Assembly (NCBI GenBank): GCA_963823665.1
Contig: CAWGMQ010000008.1
Span: forward strand, 128,001-192,000
DNA: 64,000 nucleotides
Direction of reading: 5' to 3'
Source: an uncultured Planctomycetota bacterium
GTDB taxonomy: Bacteria > Planctomycetota > Planctomycetia > Isosphaerales > Isosphaeraceae
Translations under genes and position numbers: made by a program
In this document: positions 1,712 to 37,198 of the stretch, one piece after another
Layout of the letters: every line of letters begins with the position of its first letter
How positions within the stretch are numbered: the stretch's first letter is position 1
Notes under the pieces: model-generated
What the model was told of the DNA's origin: nothing
The model's input: the letters and a program-made list of their open reading frames with translations, nothing else
Database searches by the model: none

Positions 1712-2320
1712 ATGAACCCGCACCGCACACTGTCGTATCAGATCCAGGAATGCCGTCGGCTGGCGTCGTACTTGATTGATGGCGTCCGGGTTTACTCGGA
1801 CCGGGAGATCGCCGAGAGGCTCGGGGAGGACGAGGCGTGGGTTGCCGGCGTGCTTTACCCCGATCGTGTTCCAGCCGCGCCGCCGGTTGTCCCGGTTCCG
1901 ACCAACGGGCCGGTCCGTCCGGTGTGGGATCGGTACGACGCGGGTCGGCCGTCGGTGGGGACAGTCAATCCCATCGGAGTGCCGACGACTATGGTTTTTG
2001 ACAATCCATCGCTCGTTCGAGGCAATGGCAGCTTCGGGAATCAGCAGGTATGGTACCGATACGACGCGACTCCGCGGCCGGCCACGGCAGATTGCCTTGG
2101 AACACCCACCACGATGGCTTTCGACGGCCCATCGCACTATCGAGGGAACGGCGGCTCCAGCAATCGGCCGGTGTGGGATCGGTACGACGAGGGTTCGGCG
2201 CGGCTGGCGATCGTGAATCCCCTCGGCGCGCTGACAAACATGGTTTACGACGCTCACCCTGACCAAACTCGGATAGTCCTCTGGACGACACGCGGGAAGC
2301 CGAATGACCCGGCGACTTGA
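1712..2320 (+). CDS. Hypothetical protein with a possible N-terminal HTH and three about 41-aa repeats resembling YD/RHS repeats
   Basis: GAGGAG RBS before ATG 1712. Repeated VW(D/Y)RYD...NP(I/L)G..T(T/N)M(V/A)(F/Y)D units. Exact 22-bp DNA repeat at 1919-1940 and 2168-2189. Confidence 0.55.
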   Translation: MNPHRTLSYQIQECRRLASYLIDGVRVYSDREIAERLGEDEAWVAGVLYPDRVPAAPPVVPVPTNGPVRPVWDRYDAGRPSVGTVNPIGVPTTMVFDNPSLVRGNGSFGNQQVWYRYDATPRPATADCLGTPTTMAFDGPSHYRGNGGSSNRPVWDRYDEGSARLAIVNPLGALTNMVYDAHPDQTRIVLWTTRGKPNDPAT

Positions 2321-2460
2321 TCGAGCCCGACGGGGCGTTCGAGACCGAAGCCGTACTTAACCCAGCGGATTGCGTCTTAATTTGGCCGGGCAATGCGTCC
2401 TGATCGACACGGGACGGCGGCTCGGAGCGGGAGCGCGGTGGGGTATTGATCGGGGCGCGG

Positions 2461-2855
2461 CTAGGGCGTCGTTGCGGCGACCGAAGGCGGATAGACGTAC
2501 ACGCCGTCCACGCTCGTCCCGCCGAAGCTTCGATCGCTGAATCGTGTTGGAACTCTGCCGGGAAACCGCTGATCTCCATAGCGGCTTGGGCCATCGGATG
2601 GGTCGTCGGGATTAGCTTGACTTGCATAGCATCCAACCCGCGGCTCGCCATCTCCCAGGCCAGTCGTAAGACCTCTTGATACCCTGCGCCCTGGTCGCCG
2701 GCGCGGAATTGGTCCGAGGCAATGTGGAGATACCACGGTCCCCCGTCACTGTCCTTGGCCCAAAACGCGGCCTGTAACGGGAAGGACTTCTCAAGTTGCC
2801 GGACCAGGTCCGCTCCCGCATCGATTTCTTCGGTCACCAGTGGCGCTTGATCCAT
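2461..2855 (-). CDS. Hypothetical protein (one apparent frameshift near 2570)
   Basis: MDQAPLVTEEIDAGADLV...AAFW...WYLHIAS continues in a second frame as ...FGGTSVDGVYVYPP-stop 2461. Confidence 0.55.
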
Positions 2856-3179: not shown

Positions 3180-3341
3180 GAGAAGGCCGCACGGAGCGTT
3201 CGGCACGGTCATCCAACCGGCTACCAGCACCGTGCGGCCTCAGCGTCAGGTTTCACCGGCCGAAATCGGATCCGGCCAGTTCGGAAAACGACCTGTTCCG
3301 GCTGGGACTTCAGGGCCATTACTTGCCCGCCCGCGCGGAAT
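3180..3341 (-). ncRNA. Putative structured 3' spacer of the DGR template RNA
   Basis: 11-bp perfect stem 3184-3194/3230-3240 enclosing a GGUAG/CGAAC internal loop and an inner stem; further hairpins at 3256-3279 and 3282-3300; lies directly 3' of TR. Confidence 0.55.
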
Positions 3342-3465
3342 TCAGGGCCAGGCGGAACCCGTTATCGTTCGTGCGGTTCGTCGGGTCGTTCGTGTTGCGG
3401 TTCGCCGTCCGGCAATTCGCCGCGTCGTTGTCCCACCCGCCGCCACGGTTCACGCGGTTCGAGCC
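3342..3465 (-). repeat. DGR template repeat (TR)
   Basis: 124-bp ungapped match to 5149-5272; 18 mismatches, all at TR adenines on the sense strand. Reads GSNRVNRGGGWDNDAANCRTANRNTNDPTNRTNDNGFRLAL (AAC-rich). Confidence 0.97.
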
Positions 3466-4477
3466 TCTTGGGATCGTCCACCACGCCCTGTTCTAACACA
3501 GAGCGGCGAAATGTCCAGCTCATTGCCCCGCCGGCCTTCGCGAACGCGACCAACGCGGCCAGACGTTGCTGAAGAGCCGGCTCACTCAGGAATCCCAGGC
3601 GCTCTGCGCGCTCCAGAACCCGCACGCGCCGTCGCCAGCGACGTTTGCTCCTCCGGTTCAGCTCCACGTGAGTGGGCCAGATTCGACAACCGAGGAAGGG
3701 AACACCCGCAGCCGTTCGCCGCACTTCTCCCGGCTTGAACTCCAGGAGCAGGTGAGATGACGCGAAATCCGCGCATCGCCCGTGAAAATCGACCAGGCGC
3801 TTACGATTCGTGTCCCAGAGTACCAGATCGTCCATGTATCGCACGTACCCGCGAACGCGCAGCGTCACCTTCGCAAATCGATCAAGCCAGCCCAGATAGA
3901 AGTTCGCGAGGTGCTGTGACGTCAAGCTGCCGATCGGCAGGCCGATTCCCAGGTCGCCTCGATAGGCCCGGATGATCCGGTTGAACAACTCCAGGAGCCG
4001 CCGATCCTTGAATCGCATCGCGAGCAGATTGATCAGCCTGTCGTGCGAGACACTGTCGAAGTATTTCCGTACGTCGAGCTTCAGGAACCACTCGAACTTG
4101 CGGCTAAACTGATGCGCCCGATGAATGGCGGCCTCGCGCCCCTTGCCGGTTCGACAGGCGAACGTGTCATCGATGAGCCAGCGATCCATCACCGGCTCGC
4201 ATACGTTCATGATCGCGTGGTGCAGGACGCGTTCCTCGAAGCACGGCGCGGTGATCACGCGCTCCTTGGGGTCCCGGATCACGAATTGTTGAAATCGACC
4301 GACGCGAATCGAGCCGTTGCGAATCCCATCTGAGATCACCGCGATGCGCTCGTCGAGCCGTGACGCGAACTCCCGCACAATGGTCTGCCCGCGCCGGCCG
4401 CGGGCGGCCTTGTGGAACGCCAGGCGCAGATTCTCGAGCTCGGGAATTCGCTCAAAGAGGTTCGCCGCTCGGCGCAT
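3362..4477 (-). CDS. DGR reverse transcriptase
   Basis: 371 aa; RDPKERVITAPCFEERVLHHAI, GLPIGSLTSQHLAN (DGR-type SQ motif), YVRYMDD; no maturase or endonuclease extension. Confidence 0.95.
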   Translation of the reverse strand: MRRAANLFERIPELENLRLAFHKAARGRRGQTIVREFASRLDERIAVISDGIRNGSIRVGRFQQFVIRDPKERVITAPCFEERVLHHAIMNVCEPVMDRWLIDDTFACRTGKGREAAIHRAHQFSRKFEWFLKLDVRKYFDSVSHDRLINLLAMRFKDRRLLELFNRIIRAYRGDLGIGLPIGSLTSQHLANFYLGWLDRFAKVTLRVRGYVRYMDDLVLWDTNRKRLVDFHGRCADFASSHLLLEFKPGEVRRTAAGVPFLGCRIWPTHVELNRRSKRRWRRRVRVLERAERLGFLSEPALQQRLAALVAFAKAGGAMSWTFRRSVLEQGVVDDPKRLEPREPWRRVGQRRGELPDGEPQHERPDEPHER

Positions 4478-4940
4478 TTTGCCGGGGTCCCAGAGTCAAA
4501 AGCAGCGGGAGGAGCTGTGCCGCGTACTTATCGATCTTTCCGTTTCCAATGCCTTCGATTTGCGCCAGATCGCTTTTGGACTGGCAGCGGCGCTGCACCA
4601 TCTGCGCCAACTGCTCGTTGGTGAACAGTGTGTAGACTGGTACGGCTTCGGTCTGGGCCAGCTCCTTGCGAAGCGATCGCAACTGCGAAAAGACCGCGAA
4701 CTCCTCGGCTGACAATATCGCTTTGTAATCCACCCGGCTCCGCGACAGGTTCAGGTTGTGCCCGGTCTCGCCAGGCGCATGGCTCAGGTAGTCGATGCAG
4801 ATCGCCCATAAGGAGTTGACCCCCTGGTCGATCAAGCGCCGGTCTATCGACAAAACCTTGTGGCGAGCCAAAAAACCGTTCAGTTCGTGCTCGAAGGCGG
4901 CAGAATCGTTCACAGGAACCGTGAAGAAGCGCAATGCCAT
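4452..4940 (-). CDS. HRDC-domain DGR accessory protein
   Basis: ATG 4940 gives 162 aa. C-terminal FSQLRSLRKELAQTEAVPVYTLFTNEQLAQM...LAQIEGIGNGKIDKY is the HRDC pattern. Overlaps the RT start. Confidence 0.85.
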   Translation of the reverse strand: MALRFFTVPVNDSAAFEHELNGFLARHKVLSIDRRLIDQGVNSLWAICIDYLSHAPGETGHNLNLSRSRVDYKAILSAEEFAVFSQLRSLRKELAQTEAVPVYTLFTNEQLAQMVQRRCQSKSDLAQIEGIGNGKIDKYAAQLLPLLLTLGPRQNAPSGEPL

Positions 4941-4981
4941 CCTGCGGACCTCAGACGTACACCTAAATGAATCCGGCGCGG

Positions 4982-5001
4982 GCAGGGGGTTTACCCCCTG
5001 C
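4982..5001. other. GC-rich hairpin downstream of VR (candidate DGR target-recognition cruciform)
   Basis: GCAGGGGG-TAAA-CCCCCTGC on the sense strand: perfect 8-bp stem, 4-nt loop. Confidence 0.5.
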
Positions 5002-5107
5002 ACCCCCTTTTTCCCTGCCAAGATGCCACCCGCTCCGCCGTCGGCCTCCGGCCCCTCCGGTCGCGGCTCCGCTGCGCTCCCTACGGGCCTCCGCCCGACG
5101 GCTTCGC

Positions 5108-8100
5108 TTACTTGCTCTTGCCAGTCTCCGAGGCAGTCCCAGCCAGACTCAGGGCCAGGCGGAACCCGTAAACGTACGTGCGGTACGACGGGACGCCCGT
5201 GCTGCGGTGCGCCGACCGGCAATCCGCCGCGACGTCGCCCCACCCGCCGCCACGGGACACGCGGTCCGAGCCCGTAGCCGGCCCCGACGGATCGGACGCC
5301 AGCTTCGTATCGTAACCTTCGTACCAATCGTGCGTCCACTCATAGAGGTTTCCGTGCAGGTCGAACAGGCCGCGTCGACATGGCCGAAGCTCCCGCGGAG
5401 GATGGACGTGCTTGCCGCTGTTCTCCACGTACCATCCGAACCGGCCCAGCAGACTGGCGTCGCTTCCGAAGCCATAGGCCGTCCGCGCCGGCTCGAGCGG
5501 CCACTTCCCATTCCGCTTCCGTGGGTAGGCGAAACCCACGCCGGCCGGGCTCCGACGGCCAGTTGCGCGGTGCCCAGCTTGCGCTCGGGTTTGGCTCACG
5601 TGGATGCTTCTCGTTATTCAACGTCGCGGGGTCAGCGTACGGCTGGTCGCTCTCCGGCAGTCCCATCTGCTGCCCCAGCCAGCGGCAGAAGCCCACGCTG
5701 TCATACCAATCGGCAGCATACCCCGCGTCTTCCGGTTTCGCGTCGAGTTGCTGCATGTAGCCAGCATACGTGGGTTGGAACGCGATCAACTCCTCGAGGG
5801 TGACCTCCCTGTCCAGGAGCGCGAAGGGGCGTGTGAGCCGGACCGGGTGCCGCACCTCATCCTTCTGCCGTTGGGGCTTAGCGTCCGCGGACCCGATCAT
5901 GGAGTCCCCTGGCGGAAAGACGATGAAGGTGTAGTAGAACGTCTTGTTCGGCGCCGGCTTCGTGGGCGACGTCGGTTTCACCGTGATGCGCAGCGTGAAC
6001 CACTGGCGGTCTGGCGAATAAGGAACAGGGTTCTGATCCACCTGGCGGGCCAAGTCCGCCTGGCCCCATTGCCGCAACAGCCAGCCCGCGGCGCCATGGA
6101 CTCCTGAACTGGGGTCGTCGCGATACCAGGCTGCCAGCCGCTTGATCAGAGGGTCTCGACGCGACTCGGGAACGTCGGCCAGCGCGAACTCTCCCAGCGC
6201 CAAAAGCAGCGCGTACCGGGCGTCGCGCGGATGTCGATTGGCCGGACCGTTGTCGGGCTTTTCCAGGCAGTCCAGAAGCGCATCCGCCCCAACCCCGCGA
6301 GACCGGCAACGGAAGATGAACTGCGTCAGGGCTTCCGGATCATCGCTCACCTCGAAAACCGGCAGGATCTTTTCGCGCTCGCCCAGGCGTAAGAGCGTCA
6401 CCGCGGCGCCTGCGCGGCGCTGGCCGAACGCGACTCGCTCCACGGATCCCAGCGCCTCGGCCGGCTGAGTGGAGGCGATCTGGCTGAGCTGGTCGACCAC
6501 TGCCGGCGAGCGGCTCCCCGCGACAATCGGGTAGAGCACATCGAATTGCTCGGGGGTGGCGACGGCGAGCAGGCTGGTGAGCCGGGCTACGTCGCTCCCG
6601 GCAAAGTCGGCTAGCGCGTTGGCGGCGCCCAGTCGCTGGGCATCGCTCGCCCGCGCGTCTGCGAAGAGGCGCTCCAGATCCCCGACCAATCGTGCGCGAA
6701 TCGGCCGCAGCGCCTCACGGAGCAGCGGCTGGTACTCCGCGTTGGACGAGACAAGTTGCCCGGCGATGAACTTCACGTCCGCGGCGGACCACCACGCCTG
6801 CTCGGACGCGGGGATAAAATCGGCCAGAGCCAGCGCCGCGCGGAACCTCCGTTGCGTGTCGGATTTGTCATCGCGCAGCAGGCCGCGAAAGCGCTCCGTG
6901 AGACGGGCCGCCGAGGGACGAAGCAACGCACGGATCGGCAAGACGTAGGTCACCTTGCCCGTGAGCAATTCCTCCACCAATGGTTCCACCTGCGACGGAT
7001 CGCGGGAGACCATCGCAAGCCGCGCGTGGATCTGCCCCCGCTTCTCGTCCGGAGTCTCGGCCGTTCGGGCAACGAGCGAAGAGAGCAAGGGCATGGCCAC
7101 GCCAGGATTGGCGTCGAGCTGCTTCACGATGTCCGGCACCTGGGACGGCTCGGCGCTCAGCAGGCGGCCCACCAACCCCTCGACTCGGGTGGCCTCCTGT
7201 CGCGCCGCGACTTGATTGCGCAGGACGAGCCCGGCTGAGGCCACGGCGATCATTCCTGCCAGCGCCAAGGCGGAGCGCCAGCCGTGTGTTCGCGCCGCCT
7301 GGCGCATCATTTTCTGCTGGGTCTCGGTCCAGTGGGTGGAATCCGTCAGCGTGTGGATTCTTAGCCATTCAGTGAGCGACGGCAGATGGCGGCTTTCGGG
7401 CTTGGCGTTCCAGAGCGCGGAGCGCTCCGCCAGCTTCAGCTCGGCGCGACCACGGCGTGTCTCCTTTTGTTTTCTGGTCAACCAGTCGCGAAGCGAGGGC
7501 ACGAGGTAGTCATGCGTAAGCTGATAATACCGACCTCCCGGGGCCGCGGTCGTTTGCTCTGCTCCCGGGCCTTCCGGATCGGTCGGAGTGATCAACCGAA
7601 GCTCGCTGTCGAGGATGTGCAGCACCTCGTGGAAGTCTCGGGGCCGGGCTGCGTTTCCAGCGGCGGCTTGCAGCTCTTGTTCGGACCTCATCTGGCCCTT
7701 GATGTCGGTGCCCGATTCCGGCAGCAGCGCTTTCGAGCACGGCCTGCGCCGCCTTCTGGTGCATGCGATGGCGGGGATTCGCTTGAGGCGAGACGAACGT
7801 TTCCTCGAGAAACGTGACGCCGACGCCCGCCGCTCCCCCCACTTCTCGCAGCGTGGCGGGCGTCCACTGTTTCGCTTTCATCATCTCGGCGAAAAGTGCT
7901 AGCCTCACCGAGACAACCTTCTTGCCCTGCGCCAGCTCTGCGATTGCCTGGTCCAGGAATTGCCGCTGGTCCTTGCTGATCTCCCGGCCGTTCTCAGGCA
8001 GGTTCCCGAGGGCCGCTCCGAACGCCGTGAGCACTTTCGTGGCGTGCCGCGTATCGAAGAGATCGACCAGGGCGGTGTTGTGGCCCTGGATCAGCTCCAC

Positions 8101-9686
8101 TTCCAGGTCGGCGAGAAACCGGCTCACCGCCAGCCAGAAATCGTCGCGCACCAGCACGATCGCCTGCACACGCTCGCCGTCGCACTGGCGCAGGGCGGCG
8201 ATCAGCTCCGAATCGTCGTCGCCGCGCCGGGCGTGCAGCCACTGCTCGAACTGGTCGATCACGAGCAGGAGCTTGCGGCCTGCGCCGAGCACGCGGCCCT
8301 TGCGCACCAACGCCAGTGAATCCACCAGGCCTGCGTCGTCGGGCAGGGCGGGGCAGGCCTTCTTCAGTCTGGTCAGGAGCCTCTGCTCCGTGTCATCGGC
8401 GGTCGCCTCGATGTGCACCGAGCGTACGTGCGCCGCCAGCCGGGGCAAGAGGCCTGCTTTCAAGAGTGATGATTTGCCGCAGCCGGATGGGCCATAGATC
8501 AGGCCGACGCGAAAGGTTTTTTCCGGGTCGATCGTCTCGATCTGCGTCTTCCAGAAGCGGATGCTTTCGGGCAGGCCGTCGCGGTTTCTGGGGCCGGGAA
8601 GCAGCTCGAGGAAGAAGTCGGCGTCGTGCTCGTCGAACGAGCGCAGACCCTTGGGCACGATCTTGATGGGGCGTTGATTTGAATCTGAGGGTACAAGCGG
8701 CGAAACCGGAGAGATCGCCTCGGGCACCGGCTCAGGCCGTGGGCGCGTCACAACTGGCGCTGCTGGCAGACCTGCTGGCACTGTCTTGACGAAATCGTGC
8801 AGGTCCTCGGCCATGTCGCGGGCCGTGGTGTAGCGATCGGCCGCCCGCTTCGCGAGGGCCTTCAGGCAGATACGCTCGAGCTCTTTGGGAATCGTGTCAT
8901 CGACCTGTCGGGGCGGGCCGGGTCTGCGCTCTTGATCTGATCGACCAGGTCGGCGATCGAGTCGGCCTTGAAGGGACGGCGGGCGGTCAGCAGCTCGTAG
9001 AACACGACGCCGAGGCTGAAGATATCGGAGCGGCCGTCGACGCGATGGCCTTCGCCTCGGGCTTGCTCGGGGCTCATGTACACCGGGGTGCCGGCCATTC
9101 CAGCGCGCTTGCCGAAATCTTCGTCCCGCAGCGCCAGCCCAAAATCCGCGACGCAAGGCTTTCCACGTTCGTCCAGCAGGATATTCGCGGGCTTGATGTC
9201 GCGATGCACAAGCCCTTTGGTATGGGCGTAGTGCAACGCATCGGCGACCGCGGCGACCAAGGCGGCCGATTCCTGAAACGGCGGCCGGCCCTGCAACATT
9301 CGCTCTTTCAGGTCGCTGCCCTGAAGGAATTTGGACACAACGTAGCACAGCCCATCCTCGGTGCGCCCGGTGTCCCACACGGGTACGATGTTCGGATGCT
9401 CGAGCTGTGCCAGGATCTTGGCTTCGGTGAGATACGATTCGAGATCTTCGGGCGCGGCGATTCGCTCGACGTTCGGCATCTTGATGGCCACGGCGCGATT
9501 CAGCTCGTTGTCATGGGCGAGATAGACTCGGCCGAAACCGCCTTTTCCGAGCAGCCTGATGACCCGGTAACGGCCGATCTTGGTCGGGTCGGTCGAGGGG
9601 AACGACTCGGGCAGGATCGAGGATATCGTTGGATCGAGTGGGTCGGATGGTTGTTGGTTTTGGTCCATCGTGGATACCGCGGACAT
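5108..9686 (-). CDS. DGR target: Ser/Thr kinase - P-loop (STAND-like) NTPase - hydrophobic helix - helical repeats - FGE-sulfatase/CLec domain, about 1520 aa, split by three 1-nt frameshifts (near 8915, 7735, 5487)
   Basis: LGKGGFGRVY, VAIK, HRDIKPANILL, DFGLA, GTPVYMSPEQ; GPSGCGKSS and LLVIDQFEQ; FRLPTEAEWE, GLFDLHGNLYEWTHD, RGGGW...GFRL. ORFs 8862-9686, 7510-9378, 5340-7691 and 5108-5599 join end to end. Confidence 0.88.
5149..5272 (-). repeat. DGR variable repeat (VR) at the 3' end of the target gene
   Basis: Encodes GSDRVSRGGGWGDVAADCRSAHRSTGVPSYRTYVYGFRLAL; differs from TR only at TR adenines. Confidence 0.97.
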
Positions 9687-9880
9687 GGCTGGTGCGGATT
9701 GGGGCAGTTTTTACATGTGCGGGCATCGCCGTCGTACTGCGTGGCTCGGCACCAGTTTACCAGAGCGCGGCGGTGGACGCGCCGGCGCCGTGTTGTAGCG
9801 GGCACACGCCGTGTGCCGCCCGCACTTGGTTTCCGGACGAGACCCGGGTCTTCCACCGTGGCATCTCTGCGCCGTGCGCG

Positions 9881-10142
9881 CATCTCGGAGACCTGCGGTC
9901 ACGCGGCGGGGCGGGGTCGGAGACCCGCGCCCAACATTGCGACTGCGCATCTCGGAGACCTGCGGTCACGCCCTGGGGCGGGGTCGGAGACCCGCGCCGA
10001 ACACTGCGCCTGCGCGTCTCGGAGACCTGCGGTCACGCCCTGGGGCGGGGTCGGAGACCCGCGCCCAACACTGCGCCTGCGCGTCTCGGAGACCTGCGGT
10101 CACGCGCTGGGGCGGGGTCGGAGACTCGCGCTCAACATTGCG
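9881..10142 (+). repeat. Four tandem 67-bp REP-like units
   Basis: Units start at 9881, 9948, 10015 and 10082: TCTCGGAGACCTGCGGTCACGC..GGGGCGGGGTCGGAGACCCGCGCCCAACA. An inverted family member lies at 56051-56100. Confidence 0.9.
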
Positions 10143-10198: not shown

Positions 10199-10350
10199 GC
10201 ACCCCCCCCTGGCCCCCCCTTCTAAAGGGGGGAAGCTTGGCGCAACATTCGCGGCCGGAAATCTCCGCTACTTATGCTGCAAGTTTTCAACAGACCGCCC
10301 TGGCCCCCCCTTCTAAACGACGGAGCCTCGCGCAACATACGCGGGGGGAA
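10199..10350. repeat. Two copies of a C-rich palindromic repeat (CCCCTGGCCCCCCCTTCTAA-GGGGGG type)
   Basis: Copies near 10202 and 10297; related inverted copy near 55045-55078. Confidence 0.6.
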
Positions 10351-10604
10351 ATCACCGTTCCTTGGATTACAAGTTTTCAACATCCCACCGCCCGCCCATC
10401 CATCGCGGGATTAATTCACAGCGGTAGCCAACGCTCCGTCGCCGTGTAGAGCCAATCGGTCCGCAGTGGCGGACCCTACATGTGGCGTGCTTGATTCTTC
10501 GCCCGGATCGACTCGCAGGCGCTTGACCACTGTCCTTCGCGCCGTTCAAAATGCCAGCCTGGCTCGAGACGATCTGTGAATACCACGGGGGCGAGGAGCG
10601 TGCA

Positions 10605-30151: not shown

Positions 30152-32852
30152 CTACATTCGCAACGACCGCGCCTCCTTGATCACCGCCATCCCCTCCGTC
30201 AATCGATCCTGTGCCACAAGCGCCTCCCCCAGCAATCGTCCGCTCTCAGCGGCGCCCCATCGAAATTGACACTGCGGACTCGAAGCCAAGCGAAGCGCTT
30301 CGCGGGCGGCTTGTTCCGCCGCCACCGGCTGCGACTCACTCAATAGCAACTCGGCATTCACCGCCAAAAGCTCAATCTGATAGAGCCCCATTCCGCACCG
30401 CCGTGCCAGGTGCAGTCCCTCCTCCGCGGCACTCCGTGCGACAACAGTGTCGTGGCTTCGCATCGCGATGCGAGCGCGAACCAGGTGGTACACGCACAAA
30501 TGTTCGACCGAACCTGAATGTAAGATCCAGGTGGTAGCATCGTCGAGCGATCGCTGCGTGCTCTCAAAATCTCCGAGCCGGCTCGCCGTATCCGCCCGGA
30601 ACAACTGGCCGCGCACACGATCGTCTTCCCACCCGATCAGGCCATAGACCTGTTCGGTCTGCGTGGCTTGCCACGCGTCTAGCGTCCGTCCGAGATAGAT
30701 CAGAAGTTGGACCCGCGGAATCACGCAACCGAGCGCTTCACCCGGCAATTGAGCTGCCCTGCCCATCAAGAAGTGGGCGACCTGGGTGCGCGCGGTATCC
30801 CCCTCTTTCTCGACCTCGTTCAGCCGCCCTTCTAGCAAGCGGATGTCGGCCCGGAAGAACGGCAGGTTGTTCTGTTCGTAGGCGTGGTCGAGCTCCCCCA
30901 GCGCTCGCAGATACCATCCCATCGCCCAGCGGTCGGGACACGGAGAGAACCCGCGCAGGATCCTCAAGCCCCGGGCCATCTCGCCGAGCTTCCACGCAAG
31001 GTGCCGATGCCCGCCCAGAATCTGAAAGTACAATCCTTGTGCTTTCGCCGTTTCTCCTGCTGCGCACGGCGTGCGAGATGGCTTCCTCGACGAGATCCAG
31101 TGACGCTTTTTCCGTAGGCAGGCGCCAGCCCGGCTTTCGGACCAGGCTGATGAGCTGCTCGCCGATCAACTGGTGCCAGAATCCCTGTTCCGAGCTCGTT
31201 GCCAGTTGGGCGAAGTAATCGCGCACCGCGGGGTGTACGCTCACCGAGCCGTCGGCCTCGCGCAATGCCAGATGTCGCAGCACAAGCCCGTCGAGCGCTC
31301 GCTGGAGCGCGCTTGCCTCGAGGGCGGCCAGCGGGCCGCTCGCTTGCCATTTTCGCTGGTACAGCTTGCAAATCTCATGGACGCGCCGGAGCGCAAAGTG
31401 CTTGACGGCAAATCGCTGAACGATTGCGCGTTCTCTCTGAACGGCATGCAACAGGTCCGGGGGCGTCAGATCCTGGGCTCTTGGCTCGACCGGTCCCCAC
31501 CCTTCCTTGAAAAACGCGGCTTCGAGTACCTCGGGCTTCTTCTTGTACGGAAAGAGGGGATGGTTCTGGAAGGATTGGTACAGCTCGATCGCTTGGCGAA
31601 GTTGCTGCTGATCTTGCCATTTCAAGGGGCGCTGTTGTGTTGACACCTCGAAATTGGTCTTGTCGTAGAGCTGGATCACTTCCTCGATCATTGCTTCGGC
31701 GTTTGCCTCGAAGTCATCCCGGAGACTGGCGATCGCCTGCTTGACATTATCTCGGAAAAGCCGGTCCGGTCCTGCGATTGGAGTTTCGACGAGCGCCGCG
31801 GCGACCCCCGCGGACACCGCCTCGCTCACCTCGAGCATCAAGTCGCGCGTGATTACTTTCGATTCGGGCATGAGCGAAAGCTCACCGATCAGTTCGCCCG
31901 TGGTGCGAAAGTGTACCGCCGGGGAACACAGAAACAGCGGTACGATCTGGTCGACGCGCATGCTTCGCTCGAGCAGGCAGAGGCGGCATAAAAGCGCCAG
32001 CTCTTCTGCCGGCAGGTGTTCTTCATAGGCTTTGAGCAACCGAGCCAGCCGCAGCGCCTGCCGGTCGTGTTCCGGAGACGCGAACATGGGCGCCTCCGGC
32101 GCCTTCGCGGGGTCACCTCCCAGGAACTGGCCGATCAGCCCACCCAGGTGATCGAGCGTCAAGGCGTGCGCGCCGTAGGAATCTATCAGAGGCGCAAGCG
32201 CCGCGTCGTCACCGCGCACTCCGTGACGTCTGAGCAGCTCGATCGCCGCGGCACGACTCAACTGCTCAACGTCGACATGCCGGTAGCCTTCTCCGAGCGA
32301 GGAATGAAGATCCGTCAGCGGGAATCGGCTGGTCACCAGCACGACGGTCTGGCCCGTGCGCTCGGCGACGCGAGTCAGGAGGCCTTTGAGCAGGGGATCT
32401 TCGAGCTGTCCGAAAACGCCTCGAGCGTTTCCCTCACCGCGCTGCACGCGTTCCAGTCCGTCGAGCACCAGCAGGTGTGGTCCACCTGTCGCGAGCGCGC
32501 TGCTCAAAAGATGAATCAGCGCGGCCCCTTTGGCAGGCGCCTCCGACCTGGCATCAGGCGTGAAGTAGCGGTGCAGTTCCTGGAGGAAGTACCCGGTGTC
32601 GGGCTCCTGGTAAAAGCTCCACACGAACAGGCCCGTCGGGCGTGGCGAAAGTTTTCCTTCGCGGAGCTCGTCCAGGAATCTTGCCGCGATGGCGGTCTTG
32701 CCTGCTCCACCCAGCCCGACCAGGGCGATCACACCTCGGGCGCCTCCGGTCCATAGCTCCTTGAGCGCGGAAAGCTCGGTATCACGCCCGACGAATTGGG
32801 GGGCTCGCGGTAGTGGATGGACCAGGCGGTGCTCACTGGGGTGCCAGGCCAC
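30152..32852 (-). CDS. STAND-type P-loop NTPase with C-terminal TPR-like repeats (frameshift near 31050)
   Basis: FVGRDTEL, GLGGAGKT, LLVLDGLE, VLVTSR, HALTL, HPAVRDYF; C-terminal helical repeats in ORF 30152-31033. Confidence 0.75.
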
Positions 32853-32865
32853 GGCGTTTCATTCC

Positions 32866-35800
32866 TCAGTAGGTCGTTTCGACCGAGTCACCGGCGATCT
32901 TGGCGAAGCCGGGAGCGTACATGCCCGCCCAACGCGCCGGCGCGACGATTCCCTGGCCCTTCAACCACTGCTCGGCCCGGTCGTGCTGGGCGCGGGAATC
33001 CGGGCCCGCATGAACTTCACCAAGGCGATACCGCAATAGCTGCGCTCGCAGCGGCATCTGGGCCTCGTCGTAGGACGTCGCGGCTCTGAGCAGATATTCG
33101 ATCGCGCGCACCGGGTCTTCCTTACAGGCGGCGATGCCGGAGCGGATATAAAGCGCATGCGCGCTGGCCCACTGGTGCCCTTCCTTTTCGAGCCGGGCCG
33201 CGTCCTCGGCGGCCTGGCGCAGATGGGCGCCGGAGTCGCCCGGCTTCTCGGCCATCGCCAGCGAACAGCGGGCGCGCATCTCGAGCAGGTCGATCCGCGT
33301 CATCCGGATCCGCAAGAGCATCGACCTCTCGTACCGGGGCCAAACCGACTCGAATCGGACGAGCGCCCGGCTGACGTCGCTGCGATATAGATAAAGATGA
33401 ATAAGCGCTTCGAACGCATTCGAGTGTCGAAGGTTGAAGCTGCCGGAGGCGCTCTGTTCGAGCGCGGTTTCAAGCTCGGTTTCGGTTTCGGGCTGTAGGT
33501 TTCCGGCGAGCTTGATCAGGGTCATGTAGAAAGAACTCAGCATGGTGGCCGCGTACCGGTCGCCGCGCTCCTGGGATTCTCGGAACAGGATGGACCAGCG
33601 TGCGTTCAATTCGCGGATTTCCCCCATCTGCACCAAGCTTCGCAGCAAGAAGTTATGAATCGTGTCGCGTTCCCACGTCACGCCCTTGCAGTGGTGGCGG
33701 AAGATGCCTTCGGCTTCTTCGAGCGTGGTGCGCGCCAACTGCCACAGGCCGCGCATGAGTGCGGCGAACCCGCGCACCATTCCGATCATGCCGCGGGCAT
33801 AATGCGAGTCAATCTCGCGAGCGATCCGTTCGGCTTCCTCGAGCAGGCTGGCGACGCGCGTTGCCGCGGGTGTGCCCACCGTGGCGCGGTGTCCGGCTTC
33901 CATCGCCAGGGCTCGGGCAATCCGCAGCGGCTCGCCGGCGCGAAGCGCCAGAAGCAGCCCACGCGTCTGGAAGTCGGCTCCCCGGATCGGCTCCGACATC
34001 GAGAGCCCCGCCACCGCCGACCAGCAAAGATCGATCCGCGCCAGCGTCATCGCCGAGACCTGGCTCTCGTCGCGTTTTCGGAACTTGAGCCCGTGCAGCT
34101 TGAGCAGGAAGCGATGCCAGAAGAGTGACAGCCAAGCTTGGCGCGCTGTGCGCGGCATCGATAGCCCTAGCGGGCCGAGCAGTGTGCGCAGAGCGCCAGG
34201 CCGCCTTCGACCTCGCCGGAGAGAAGAAGCTGCGTCGATGCCAGCCGCTTGAGCTCGAGCGTCTCGGCCGCCGTGGCCGTTTCCGCGGCTTTTGCGTAGA
34301 CCTGGGCCGCCTCTTTGCCTCTCCCCGCGTTGGCGAGCGCGTCTCCGAGCTTGCGCCAGAGCATGCCGGCCTGTGCATGAGTGCCCTGGTGGAGCTCGAG
34401 GGCCACGCGAAAGAGCCGCGCCGAGCGGTCGAACGCGAGCGCGGCTGCGGCCTGGTCGGCGGCCACGGAATAGTATTCAGACGCCCGCGCGGTTTGACCT
34501 GCGCCGCGACAGTGCACGGCGAGGATCTCCGGGTCGACTGACCCAGATGTGATCAGCACAAGCGCCAGGCGCTCGTGGTTCCAGCGAATGGACTCGGCCG
34601 GCAGATGCGCGACAACCGTCTCGCGAATCCGGTCGTGATAGATCTCGACTTCCTCATTGTGAGCTTGCCCCAGGCACCGGATCAGACGAGCCGACCGGAG
34701 TGACGCGAGTGCAACTCGCGCCCCGGCCCCCAAGTCCGAAGCCTGGAAGGCCAGGCTCTGAGTAATCGGCCTGCCCGACACCGCCACCAGACCCAGCAAT
34801 CGCACGGCGTCCTCCGGCTGCCGCTTGATCCGCGTCCAAAGCACCTCGTCGAGGTCAAGTTTGCCGATCGCTTCCCAGCGCTCGATCGGCTCTCCGCTCT
34901 GGATATGCCGCACCAGCTCGTCGATGAACAGCGGGTTTCCGCCTGATTCGGTCGCAACCATGTGCGCCTGCGCAAGCGCGACGGCATCGTCTCGTCCCAG
35001 AAGCGCCAGTGCAAGTTGCCGCGACTCGGCGAGGGACAGCTCCTCGACGGCCAGCTCGCGGTGGTCGAGCCCCTTGGACTCTTTCGGCATCGCCTTGCGA
35101 ATCTCGAGGAGGAACGGGTTTTGGTCGGCATCTTCAGCGCGAAAACAGCCGATAAAGAGCAGGGCCGGCCTCTGGTCCGCGCAGATAAGCTCGGCAAGCA
35201 GGTGGGCACTGTCGACGTCGCCCCACTGGAGGTCGTCGATTGCCAGGATCAACGGCGTTCGCTCGGCCAGTCGTCTCAAGAGCTCGCGGAGCCCGGCGAA
35301 GGTGCGCCGGCGCAGTTCCTGCTGGTCCGGCGTCTCCTCTGGCGGCAGCCGAGCCCCCGCGATCGCTTCGAGGCTCTGAAGCACAGGAAACGCACGCGCA
35401 AGGAAACCGACATCGTCGGGAAGCAGCCGCTCGGCCTGCTCGAGCGGCAGCTCCTTCAAGTACCGCGCCAGGGAGTCGATCAGGCTGTCGAGGGCCTTGT
35501 AAGGAACCGACTCTCTCTCATAGCACCGCCCGGAGAGAACGACCGCTTCCTCGCGCTCGAGGAGCTCGTCGATAAACGACCGAACCAGCGTGGTCTTGCC
35601 GGTGCCTGTCCGGCCGAAAATAAACAGCGAAACCGTCTTCCTCCGATGCAGCGCGGCGAGGCCACCATCCAGGACTTGACGATGCCTGGACCTCCCGATC
35701 AAGGGGAATGCGCGAGCCGGCTCGGGTTGATCGTCTGGCTCGGGAGGCCGTCCGCCCAACAGCGCAATGACGTCTCTCCCACCGGGTCGTCTGGAAGCGT

Positions 35801-37198
35801 CACGGTCGAGCAGAGCGACGCACAGTCGCACCAGGTCAGGCGGCAGTCCGTCAACCAGCGCACCGGGTGACGGGGCCGCCTGCTTCTGCTTGGCCGCGAG
35901 CACCTCATCGGGCGTGCCGGCGAACGGAAGCTGCCCGGTCATGGCTTCGAACAGAATAACGCCGACGCTGTACCAGTCGCTCGCCGTGCTCACCGACTCG
36001 CCGGCGGCCTGCTCCGGCGACATGTGACCCACAGTCCCAACGACCTGCCGCTCTGCACCAATGCTCTCGAGGTCGGCCGTCAAGCCGAAATCGAGCAGCA
36101 CGACCCGCCCCTCGAGCGTGACCAGGACGTTGGGCGGCTTGATGTCCCGATGCAACTTTCCGGCTTTATGCAGCTCGCTCACGCCCAGCGCGAGCTGCGC
36201 CAGCGCTCGCGCAGCGCTGCTCGTCAAAGTGAAAGTTGAAAGTCCTCCGCGCTGGGCTCGGCTCGCCGGCGGCTTGGGCGGGGCGCGCGATCACCGTGGG
36301 CTCGGCATTCCAGCGGGCCGAGGCTTCCGCGGGGCTTCCCCTGACGAAGCTGATGAAATTCGTCCCCTCAACGAGCTCCATGGTGAAGAACCAGCGGTCT
36401 TCGACAGCGACCAGCTCGTAGAGGTTCACCAGGTTGGGATGAGTGATATCGCTGAGCGACCGGAACTCTTGCTTGAAGCGCACAAGGGCGACTGGGTCCA
36501 CCTTTCGCATCGTTTTAAGAGCGACCAGCTCGCCCCGCTGCTGGTCGTACGTTTCGTAGACTACGCCCATCCCGCCGGCGCCCAACCTGCGTACCAGCGT
36601 GAATCGGACCGTGTTCAGCATCGCCCGCAGGCTCTCGGCCTCGGAGTGCAAATGATATGCCTCATCGATGGCGAATGAGAGCTGATCTTCTGTGGGGTTC
36701 ACGGTGGTGGGGATTCGCGTGCTGCGCAGCCCTGTTGGCTCCAGCACCCGTTCGACGGTCACCGCATCAGCCGATGCCGCGCGGCCGCCTTCGCCTTCGA
36801 CCTGCGTGTCGTCCTTCGCCGGTTCTCCCTCCATCGGCTGTGTCGGAGTCTCCGACACGACGTCGCGGGTATTGGAGCTCGCAAGCGCGGCGAGCGCCCC
36901 CAGATTTCTGCGCCGCTGGAAGCGTTCGCCGTCCACGAGCGCGCGAACCATCTCCCCGTTGGCGGCAATTTCGGGGAAGGCCGAGAGATAGACCCGCAGG
37001 GGAAGCTGCGCCGCGGCGTGTCCATCGCTCGTGTTGATCCACGAGCAGAACATCCAGTCGCAGGTCGTCGGAGATCTCGGGGTGGGCCGAGAGAAAAGCG
37101 AACACGTCCGGGCCTGCCGGCTCGCTTGTCCAGAGTTTGGAAAACTCTCGCGCGAGCGACCCTTCTGGTTTGGCCGGGGCTTCGGTTTCCATCGGCAT
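32866..37198 (-). CDS. Ser/Thr kinase - AAA/STAND ATPase - helical repeat protein (frameshifts near 37020, 36220, 34190)
   Basis: LGAGGMGVVY, VALK, HRDIKPPNV, DFGL, GTVGHMSPEQ, GRTGTGKTT, IDDLQWGD, GNPLFIDEL, HDRIRE; ORF pieces join end to end. Confidence 0.82.

Follow-up and report, generated by a model that had tools for sequence, protein, structure and literature searches.

A chromosomal diversity-generating retroelement of the HRDC-accessory type, with a putative kinase-NTPase sensor as its target, in an uncultured planctomycete

We analysed a window of 64,000 nucleotides (contig CAWGMQ010000008.1 of assembly GCA_963823665.1, positions 128,001 to 192,000) from an uncultured bacterium of the Isosphaeraceae, Planctomycetota, in which a reading made without database searches (hereafter the sequence-only reading) had proposed a diversity-generating retroelement (DGR) between positions 3180 and 9686. 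We hold with high confidence that the locus is a complete chromosomal DGR of the HRDC-accessory type, in which a template repeat (TR) and a reverse transcriptase (RT) diversify the CLec (lectin-fold) end of a kinase-NTPase target protein; the topology of this target and its function as a sensor are what we infer. All components of the element lie on the minus strand, and their coordinates are collected in Table 1.

The element was recognised by two repeats, TR and a variable repeat (VR1), which align without gaps over 124 bp (TR 3342-3465, VR1 5149-5272). Recomputation returned the counts of the sequence-only reading, namely 18 mismatches, 18 of 18 at TR adenines (9 A to T, 7 A to G and 2 A to C); were 18 mismatches to fall at random among the 124 bases, the probability that all would hit the 29 adenines is 1.7e-14. 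One base past this block, at 3341/5148, a 19th adenine has changed (A to G), turning a codon AAT into AGT, and since this change is present and the homology reaches 3340/5147, the repeat is really 126 bp long, with 19 of 19 mismatches at adenines. The earlier count of 28 adenines fits the 18 variable codons recognised at that time, but the 124 bp hold 29, the last of them being the first A of the additional codon (AAT, 3342-3340). In the same way, the 4 GAY and 4 ACG codons of the earlier tally stood, while its 10 AAY codons became 11 and its 18 variable codons 19; the potential repertoire, given before as about 4e16 (3.8e16), rises to approximately 5.7e17 proteins once the 19th codon is counted. 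A check of each variable codon bore out the claim that no stop codon can be reached from any of them. Beyond the final mutated adenine, TR and VR1 share an identical, GC-rich end of 20 nt.

The window RT matches Pfam RVT_1, scores under the cut-off of every NCBIfam RT model, and contains the motifs LPIGSLTSQ and YMDD in its translation; IGxxxSQ is a hallmark of DGR RTs. Its relatives are typically 336 aa long and end with a TAA codon just before TR; this codon is absent here, and the window open reading frame (ORF) therefore reads through TR and reaches 371 aa. Among solved structures, its best relative was 8ub7_A, a 328-aa reverse transcriptase (E 3.2e-45, residues 2-286), whereas group II intron and retron RTs matched at 1e-14 or weaker. 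We take 8ub7_A to be bRT, the RT of the Bordetella phage DGR, with which its length of 328 aa is consistent. The code itself is absent from the text of a preprint on that element (10.1101/2023.10.23.563531). In a maximum-likelihood tree of 36 rows, made up of the window RT, 27 relatives and 8 group II RTs of the same genome and holding no published DGR RT reference set, the window RT and its relatives were split from the group II RTs with support 100/100, and the window RT was nested in a Planctomycetota subclade (98/97). Four related loci were left out of this tree, three (L032, L033 and L049) with a stop within the matched stretch and one (L059) by choice. Named relatives of the RT belong to the Planctomycetota families Isosphaeraceae, Pirellulaceae and Planctomycetaceae, and no second RT of the DGR kind was found in the 16.46-Mb genome. 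The match to 8ub7_A, the 100/100 clade and the adenine-biased repeats at 24 of 31 related loci group the RT with DGR RTs, as the sequence-only reading had expected; its sequence places it in the DGR lineage, apart from the RTs of group II introns and retrons.

Read along the minus strand, the cassette runs target, HRDC gene, RT, TR and a conserved structured RNA segment, so that the RT and HRDC genes lie between the repeats, where they had been placed from the sequence. A spacer of approximately 170 nt separates the target gene from the HRDC gene, whose end overlaps the RT start by 26 nt. This arrangement was compared with 31 related loci from named genomes, which span Planctomycetota, Bacteroidota, Verrucomicrobiota and others. 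An HRDC homologue stands directly 5' of the RT in 31 of 31, and an A-biased TR/VR pair (at least 80% of mismatches at adenines), with TR just 3' of the RT, was found in 24 of 31; the seven loci lacking such a pair are mostly on short contigs. Of the Avd family (PF05635) the genome has a single gene, which lies on contig C6 and is not linked to the cassette.

The segment 3' of TR is conserved across 7 Planctomycetota loci, and in relatives its terminal hairpin is followed by a T-run. RNAalifold, run on 6 sequences of this segment, gave 30 pairs, 9 of them with compensatory changes. When TR and its 3' flank were folded as a whole region from the single sequence, stability was no greater than that of shuffles (z = -0.87), and it is therefore the comparative analysis that backs the structure; no Rfam family was matched anywhere in the window at gathering thresholds. 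Across a broad clade of RTs, HRDC, RT and TR keep the same order, with a structured RNA following TR. The 3' segment occupies the place that the Spacer has in the Bordetella phage DGR, and by that analogy priming is a candidate function. Directly 3' of it lies an ORF (1989-2855, minus strand) whose first 95 residues are plausible and whose remainder is of low complexity and looks frameshifted; it matched no Pfam family.

Table 1. Coordinates of the DGR components and associated features in the window (runs X1 to X4 are soil-metagenome runs, see text)
Feature	Position	Strand	Remarks
Group II intron reverse transcriptase/maturase	1-1014	minus	runs off window start; TIGR04416, 308 bits against a cut-off of 300
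Conserved structured RNA segment	3185..3339	minus	about 155 nt; 3' of TR; ends in a long hairpin
TR, template repeat	3340..3465	minus	directly 3' of the RT ORF and overlapping it
DGR reverse transcriptase	3362..4477	minus	ORF of 371 aa; Pfam RVT_1 2.9e-13
HRDC accessory gene	4452..4940	minus	162 aa from ATG at 4940; Pfam HRDC 4.3e-18
GC-rich hairpin, perfect, 9 bp	4982..5001	.	between target stop and HRDC start
DGR target gene	5108..9686	minus	about 1526 aa with the three frame breaks bridged; ATG 9686, stop 5108
VR1, variable repeat	5147..5272	minus	last 42 codons of the CLec domain; 19/19 mismatches at TR adenines (126 bp)
Frame break 3, two bases missing in a CG repeat	5483..5488	minus	tblastn junction 5484-5488; run X3 record 19 has CG inserted after 5483 (303 nt, 0 other differences)
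Single hydrophobic helix, predicted transmembrane	7221..7271	minus	between NTPase and solenoid
Frame break 2, one extra base	7729..7735	minus	tblastn junction 7729-7733; single contigs of runs X3 and X4 lack one base
Frame break 1, one base missing	8898..8918	minus	tblastn junction 8898-8916; run X1 record 7 has G inserted after 8918 (151 nt, 2 other letters)

The target gene encodes, in order, a Ser/Thr kinase, an nSTAND1 NTPase, a hydrophobic helix, a HEAT/ARM-like solenoid and an FGE/CLec domain with VR1 at its C-terminus. The same list of parts (kinase, STAND-like NTPase, hydrophobic helix, helical repeats, CLec) had been drawn up from the sequence, and Pfam, hydropathy and fold prediction agree with it. 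The Pfam profiles named for such a check all passed their cut-offs, with Pkinase at 2.1e-46, nSTAND1 (PF20703) at 3.6e-18 and FGE-sulfatase at 2.3e-13 and 5.7e-14; profile positions 161-254/255 of the last cover the VR-bearing segment. The same domains were found in an intact paralog of 1562 aa on contig C5 of the same genome (L031 7367-12055, minus strand), with Pkinase at aa 57-311, nSTAND1 at aa 377-796 and FGE-sulfatase at aa 1291-1549 (2.9e-28); for nSTAND1 the window protein scored 66.8 bits and the paralog 70.0 bits, against a cut-off of 27.1. Motifs of a Hanks-type kinase (GxGxxG, VAIK, HRDIKPAN, DFG) and a P-loop (GPSGCGKSS) are present in the translation. Of 8000 candidates scored, 2539 proteins fall into the target's family at E<=1e-10, and the best 120 are mostly Pkinase, nSTAND1 and FGE-sulfatase proteins of approximately 1600 aa, a few having TIR in place of the kinase.

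Some variation in this architecture was seen among the targets linked to related RTs. At two loci (L032 5151-7340 and L046 4783-6882) alignment of the target with the paralog begins no earlier than about aa 823-852 and covers helix, solenoid and CLec, and no kinase-nSTAND1 part was detected upstream of the aligned part, whereas a third locus, from Planctomycetaceae SH139 (L038), has the complete architecture; the clade is thus not uniform in the N-terminal module of its cis targets. Within the genome of the window organism, 46 places show FGE/CLec similarity to the target C-terminus, many of them in open frames of 1000-1800 aa.

The hydrophobic helix is the only segment of the target that exceeds a hydropathy threshold of 1.6 (Kyte-Doolittle 19-residue mean 1.78 in the window protein and 1.95 in the paralog, aa 838-858). 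It is 17-21 residues long with basic residues on both sides, and its hydrophobic character is kept in the consensus of a 49-row family alignment. Since the kinase and the NTPase need cytoplasmic ATP, these two domains are predicted to be cytoplasmic, and the CLec domain would then lie outside the cytoplasmic membrane. Two considerations temper this picture: it is a prediction drawn from the hydropathy scan alone, and in an AlphaFold2 model of the last 703 residues of the paralog, the last 126 residues, which are the C-terminal CLec part, have pLDDT below 50, so that it is the Pfam match that carries the lectin fold. In the same model, the first 392 residues form 23 helices with pLDDT near 90 and are followed by a beta-rich part. 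With Foldseek the helical part matched HEAT/ARM solenoids (the PP2A A subunit, importins and designed armadillo proteins) at E of about 4e-5 but with low TM-scores of 0.12-0.28; the fold search with the ectodomain model returned generic solenoid matches only and no specific relative.

A different placement was weighed, in which the target is a cytoplasmic STAND (NLR-like) sensor of invaders in a conflict or abortive-infection system and the helix is a buried linker. Where a HEAT/ARM solenoid follows a STAND NTPase, it usually acts as a sensor arm in the cytosol, and the hydropathy scan of the target found neither a signal peptide nor a second membrane helix. Two papers on related systems, as far as consulted, likewise take STAND-CLec targets of DGRs to be mostly cytoplasmic antigen sensors (PMC8195603, PMC10907252), although the latter predicts a periplasmic CLec for some membrane-spanning targets. 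We nevertheless consider a cytoplasmic location unlikely, given a helix that is the sole segment above threshold, of 17-21 residues with basic flanks, and hydrophobic across 49 family members. The choice between the two placements leaves the DGR itself untouched, for its mechanism is independent of location, and roles in defence and in signalling are compatible.

In the assembly the target is broken into four frame segments, in keeping with the frame correction that the sequence-only reading had called for. All four segments are colinear with the intact paralog over aa 50-1554, at 65-68% identity by tblastn. For comparison, short contigs of four soil-metagenome runs (X1 to X4) from three studies were used; contigs identical to the window occur among them, and the same or a near-identical organism is therefore present in those soils. 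Over approximately 2.9 kb of contigs at 100% identity, there were almost no substitutions, yet three indels, and these lie at the three frame breaks (Table 1). At break 2, the contig of run X3 omits 7734 (depth 3.71 of 33.4) and that of run X4 omits 7735 (2.1 of 2.1). When the three indels were applied in a script, a single ORF of 1526 aa with no stop was obtained, which aligned in one piece with the paralog; this, with the colinearity of the paralog, answered the question left by the sequence-only reading of one gene or two, kinase and CLec being parts of one gene. Because the identical contigs show almost no substitutions but three indels, and because independent contigs hold indels at all three sites that restore one ORF, we think it likely that the three breaks are assembly errors rather than real.

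Several observations pull the other way and would suit a reading in which the DGR is real and its cis target a recent pseudogene of this strain, the element being a relic or serving the remote paralog only. Each correcting indel is found in one contig of depth 2-4, and at break 2 the covering contigs of runs X1 and X2 have no gap. Moreover, three breaks occur in 4.6 kb of target, whereas no break is apparent in approximately 15 kb of nuo genes or in several further housekeeping genes of the window, which means that the indels are not evenly spread, and another kinase-AAA_16 gene of the window (34167-37053) is likewise split. A pseudogene would nonetheless have to be reconciled with frame-restoring indels at all three sites, in independent contigs with identical or near-identical flanks, and with the clean 1526-aa ORF that they produce; indels with almost no substitutions over approximately 2.9 kb look to us like typical long-read assembly error, and the alternative target, the VR of the paralog described below, looks older than VR1. 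We therefore judge decay of the target to be improbable, and proceed with an intact target gene whose breaks arose in assembly as the likely case.

The split gene just mentioned, a second STAND-like gene on the minus strand, is read in two frames, with Pkinase profile positions 2-90 in one and 100-256 in the other, and is adjoined by a NACHT/AAA_16 gene at 30738-32852; its split could be either another frame break or an assembly indel. Further frameshifts suspected at 30152/30738, 39465/40726 and 55146/56023 were rejected, the nuo pair being two separate genes and the others giving no family.

A search of the genome with TR for remote VRs, as suggested with the original proposal, yielded one further TR-matching VR (VR2), at the C-terminus of the paralog (C5:1153404-1153527). 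VR2 differs from TR at 25 positions, 17 of them adenines (p = 6e-8) and 8 elsewhere. Where window target and paralog have codons for the same amino acid, third positions agree in 25 of 28 cases inside the VR, compared with 22 of 46 just upstream (Fisher p = 3.8e-4). Five of the eight mismatches outside adenines are matched in related TRs, which have the VR2 base at 3436, 3364 and 3358 and an adenine at 3432 and 3366; the remaining three are at 3462 (the 5' edge) and at 3352 and 3344 (the 3' constant stretch). The excess of agreement at synonymous sites and the ancestral TR states show that VR2 was written from a TR and is more than a diverged copy. On the simplest reading of these sequences, the latest rewriting of VR2 was from an earlier form of TR, which since then would have lost two adenines and changed at three other bases. 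VR1, which equals the present TR at every position that is not an adenine, would have been rewritten after those changes. This history is one of activity on an evolutionary time scale, which is distinct from activity today.

VR2, with three mismatches in its 3' constant stretch, is probably no longer a target. Signs of present-day homing at VR1 were sought in metagenomes: the bin containing the VR (5043-5269) is almost uncovered in the four soil runs, and an exact-pattern scan of metagenome contigs with the upstream flank of VR1 gave 0 matches. Two contigs give a hint only: record 19 of run X3 breaks off at 5267, which is five bases into the VR, and record 27 of run X4, of 137 nt, lies on TR with 10 other letters. 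An inverted repeat or hairpin of the kind expected after the GC-rich 3' end of a VR (IMH) was sought directly 3' of VR1 and VR2 and not found, the nearest hairpin being approximately 150 nt downstream. Two other TR-like places of the genome (L004 and L005) were ruled out as VRs because they have no adenine bias. Beside the paralog on contig C5, a subtilisin-like peptidase (L031 5723-7218, minus strand) is apparently split over two overlapping frames, the second ORF containing in translation the Ser motif GTSYATAVVSG.

That the likeness of TR and VR arose by ordinary duplication or gene conversion between CLec paralogs, with no retrohoming, is refuted by adenine specificity and the conserved cassette: 46 FGE/CLec-like places and a close paralog do speak for such an origin, but 18 of 18 mismatches fall at adenines, the CLec paralogs L004 and L005 show no such bias, and TR is non-coding in the target-frame context and follows directly on a DGR-type RT, a position kept in 24 of the 31 related loci.

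The working of the element may be pictured after that of the Bordetella phage DGR. A single minus-strand transcript would contain the RT gene, TR and the structured 3' segment; the RT, together with the HRDC protein, would copy TR into cDNA with misincorporation at adenines; and the mutagenised cDNA would replace VR1 at the 3' end of the target gene. Nineteen codons of the CLec/FGE domain could thereby be rewritten to approximately 6e17 variants, all free of stops. In the resulting protein, the kinase and nSTAND1 would lie in the cytoplasm, followed by one membrane helix, with the solenoid and the hypervariable lectin-fold domain outside the cytoplasmic membrane, and a ligand bound at the variable tip would switch NTPase and kinase. 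The target would thus act as a diversifying sensor, a role that we infer, as we do the coupling of ligand sensing to the NTPase/kinase switch.

The element kind and the target architecture are already described, as the sequence-only reading had allowed for the element class, and the locus is a well-formed example of them. Closest in architecture are the STAND NTPase-FGS proteins reported by Kaur, Burroughs, Iyer and Aravind in 2021 (PMC8195603), in which, in the parts consulted, an S/T/Y kinase may stand N-terminally, the nSTAND1 clade is named, and FGS genes are often linked to DGRs. The window target shares with them the N-terminal effector kinase, nSTAND1 (PF20703), the C-terminal FGS and a nearby DGR RT. 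It differs in that a four-helix (Avd-type) accessory is described there, whereas an HRDC accessory alone is present here; in having a hydrophobic helix and a solenoid of approximately 390 residues between NTPase and FGS; and in its planctomycete host, cyanobacteria being emphasised in that account.

Doré et al. (2024; PMC10907252) described DGR-diversified nSTAND1/NACHT-CLec proteins of multicellular bacteria as putative antigen sensors, with Thiohalocapsa PB-PSB1 and an RT 'clade 5D' among the material consulted. In common with the window locus, those DGRs are chromosomal, their targets combine nSTAND1 or NACHT with a single CLec and include Pkinase among their domains, diversification in trans reaches remote targets, and a periplasmic location is predicted for some of the CLec domains. 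In contrast, the term HRDC does not occur in the main text of that paper, and its proof of diversification is at the level of reads, whereas ours is a comparison of sequences. The cyanobacterial variable proteins with Ser/Thr kinase domains and dispersed paralogs in the portion consulted of Vallota-Eastman et al. (2020; PMC7517822) resemble the target in their kinase N-terminus, their C-terminal CLec VR, and paralogs that are dispersed and vary in TR/VR homology; in that portion the kinase is described as joined directly to CLec and no nSTAND1 or solenoid module was seen, whereas both intervene here.

In the survey of Wu et al. (2018; PMC5758913), insofar as it was consulted, DGRs with HRDC form 'Architecture C' (14 of 372 DGRs, in 11 layouts, approximately half of them without avd), with the Treponema denticola DGR and its target TvpA as prototype. 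The window cassette likewise has its HRDC accessory gene within the cassette, but in place of 11 layouts, a fixed order of target, HRDC, RT and TR was found among its relatives, in the proportions given above. Compared with the DGR of Bordetella phage BPP-1 (mtd-avd-TR-brt), the window element shows the same adenine-specific TR-to-VR differences, its target likewise has a CLec fold, and TR is again followed directly by a structured RNA; in the preprint cited above (10.1101/2023.10.23.563531), the portion consulted states that the phage DGR needs a Spacer RNA directly downstream of TR, and its survey took Avd-containing DGRs only. The phage element, on the other hand, is phage-borne with Avd and a tail-fibre target, whereas the present one is chromosomal with HRDC and a signalling-protein target; TR is 5' of the RT there and 3' of it here, and no hairpin directly follows the VR here.

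The assembly comprises 16.46 Mb in 12 contigs, with an estimated completeness of 92% and contamination of 3.5%, and is very large for a planctomycete-like genome. Genes of the window surrounding the element include a group II intron RT, a class II aminoacyl-tRNA synthetase, an ABC transporter, ECF sigma factors, a signal peptidase, an enzyme of the diaminopimelate/ornithine decarboxylase type and the nuo operon. No phage genes were seen among the scanned ORFs of the window, and the chromosomal, non-phage setting given in the sequence-only reading holds. The group II RT at the window start, approximately 2.3 kb from TR, has a copy on contig C6 with which it shares 98% identity over 257 columns; the genome has two families of group II RTs with at least 8 copies, and Rfam gave no match to a group II intron RNA inside the window. 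A tandem repeat at 9878-10142 (67-bp unit, 4 copies, 93% matches) lies approximately 190 bp upstream of the target start codon, and a second repeat at 10207-10382 has a 90-bp unit in approximately 2 copies.

Three points are new from this analysis, namely frame breaks that are probably not real, a second VR with a datable TR history, and a fixed HRDC-RT-TR layout with its RNA. From these we put forward, tentatively and at somewhat less than even confidence, that one HRDC-type DGR serves, or has served, a few unlinked membrane-spanning STAND-kinase receptors with the lectin tip outward; that the layered history of TR reflects successive rounds of rewriting; and that the fixed layout, found in several phyla, marks an Avd-independent variant of the machinery with a Spacer-like RNA of its own.

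The locus leaves the picture of what DGRs do unchanged. It provides a clean, fully parsed example of the DGR-diversified STAND/kinase sensors of complex bacteria. To our knowledge, this class is known from sequence only, with no member whose ligand or output has been established. Three entry points are offered by the present example: the remote intact paralog supplies a full-length reference protein, the history of TR orders homing at VR1 and VR2 relative to each other, and the HRDC-only cassette comes with a conserved structured RNA 3' of TR. If the proposed reading is true, the planctomycete would possess a receptor at its surface that hypermutates and is coupled to an NLR-like switch and to a kinase.

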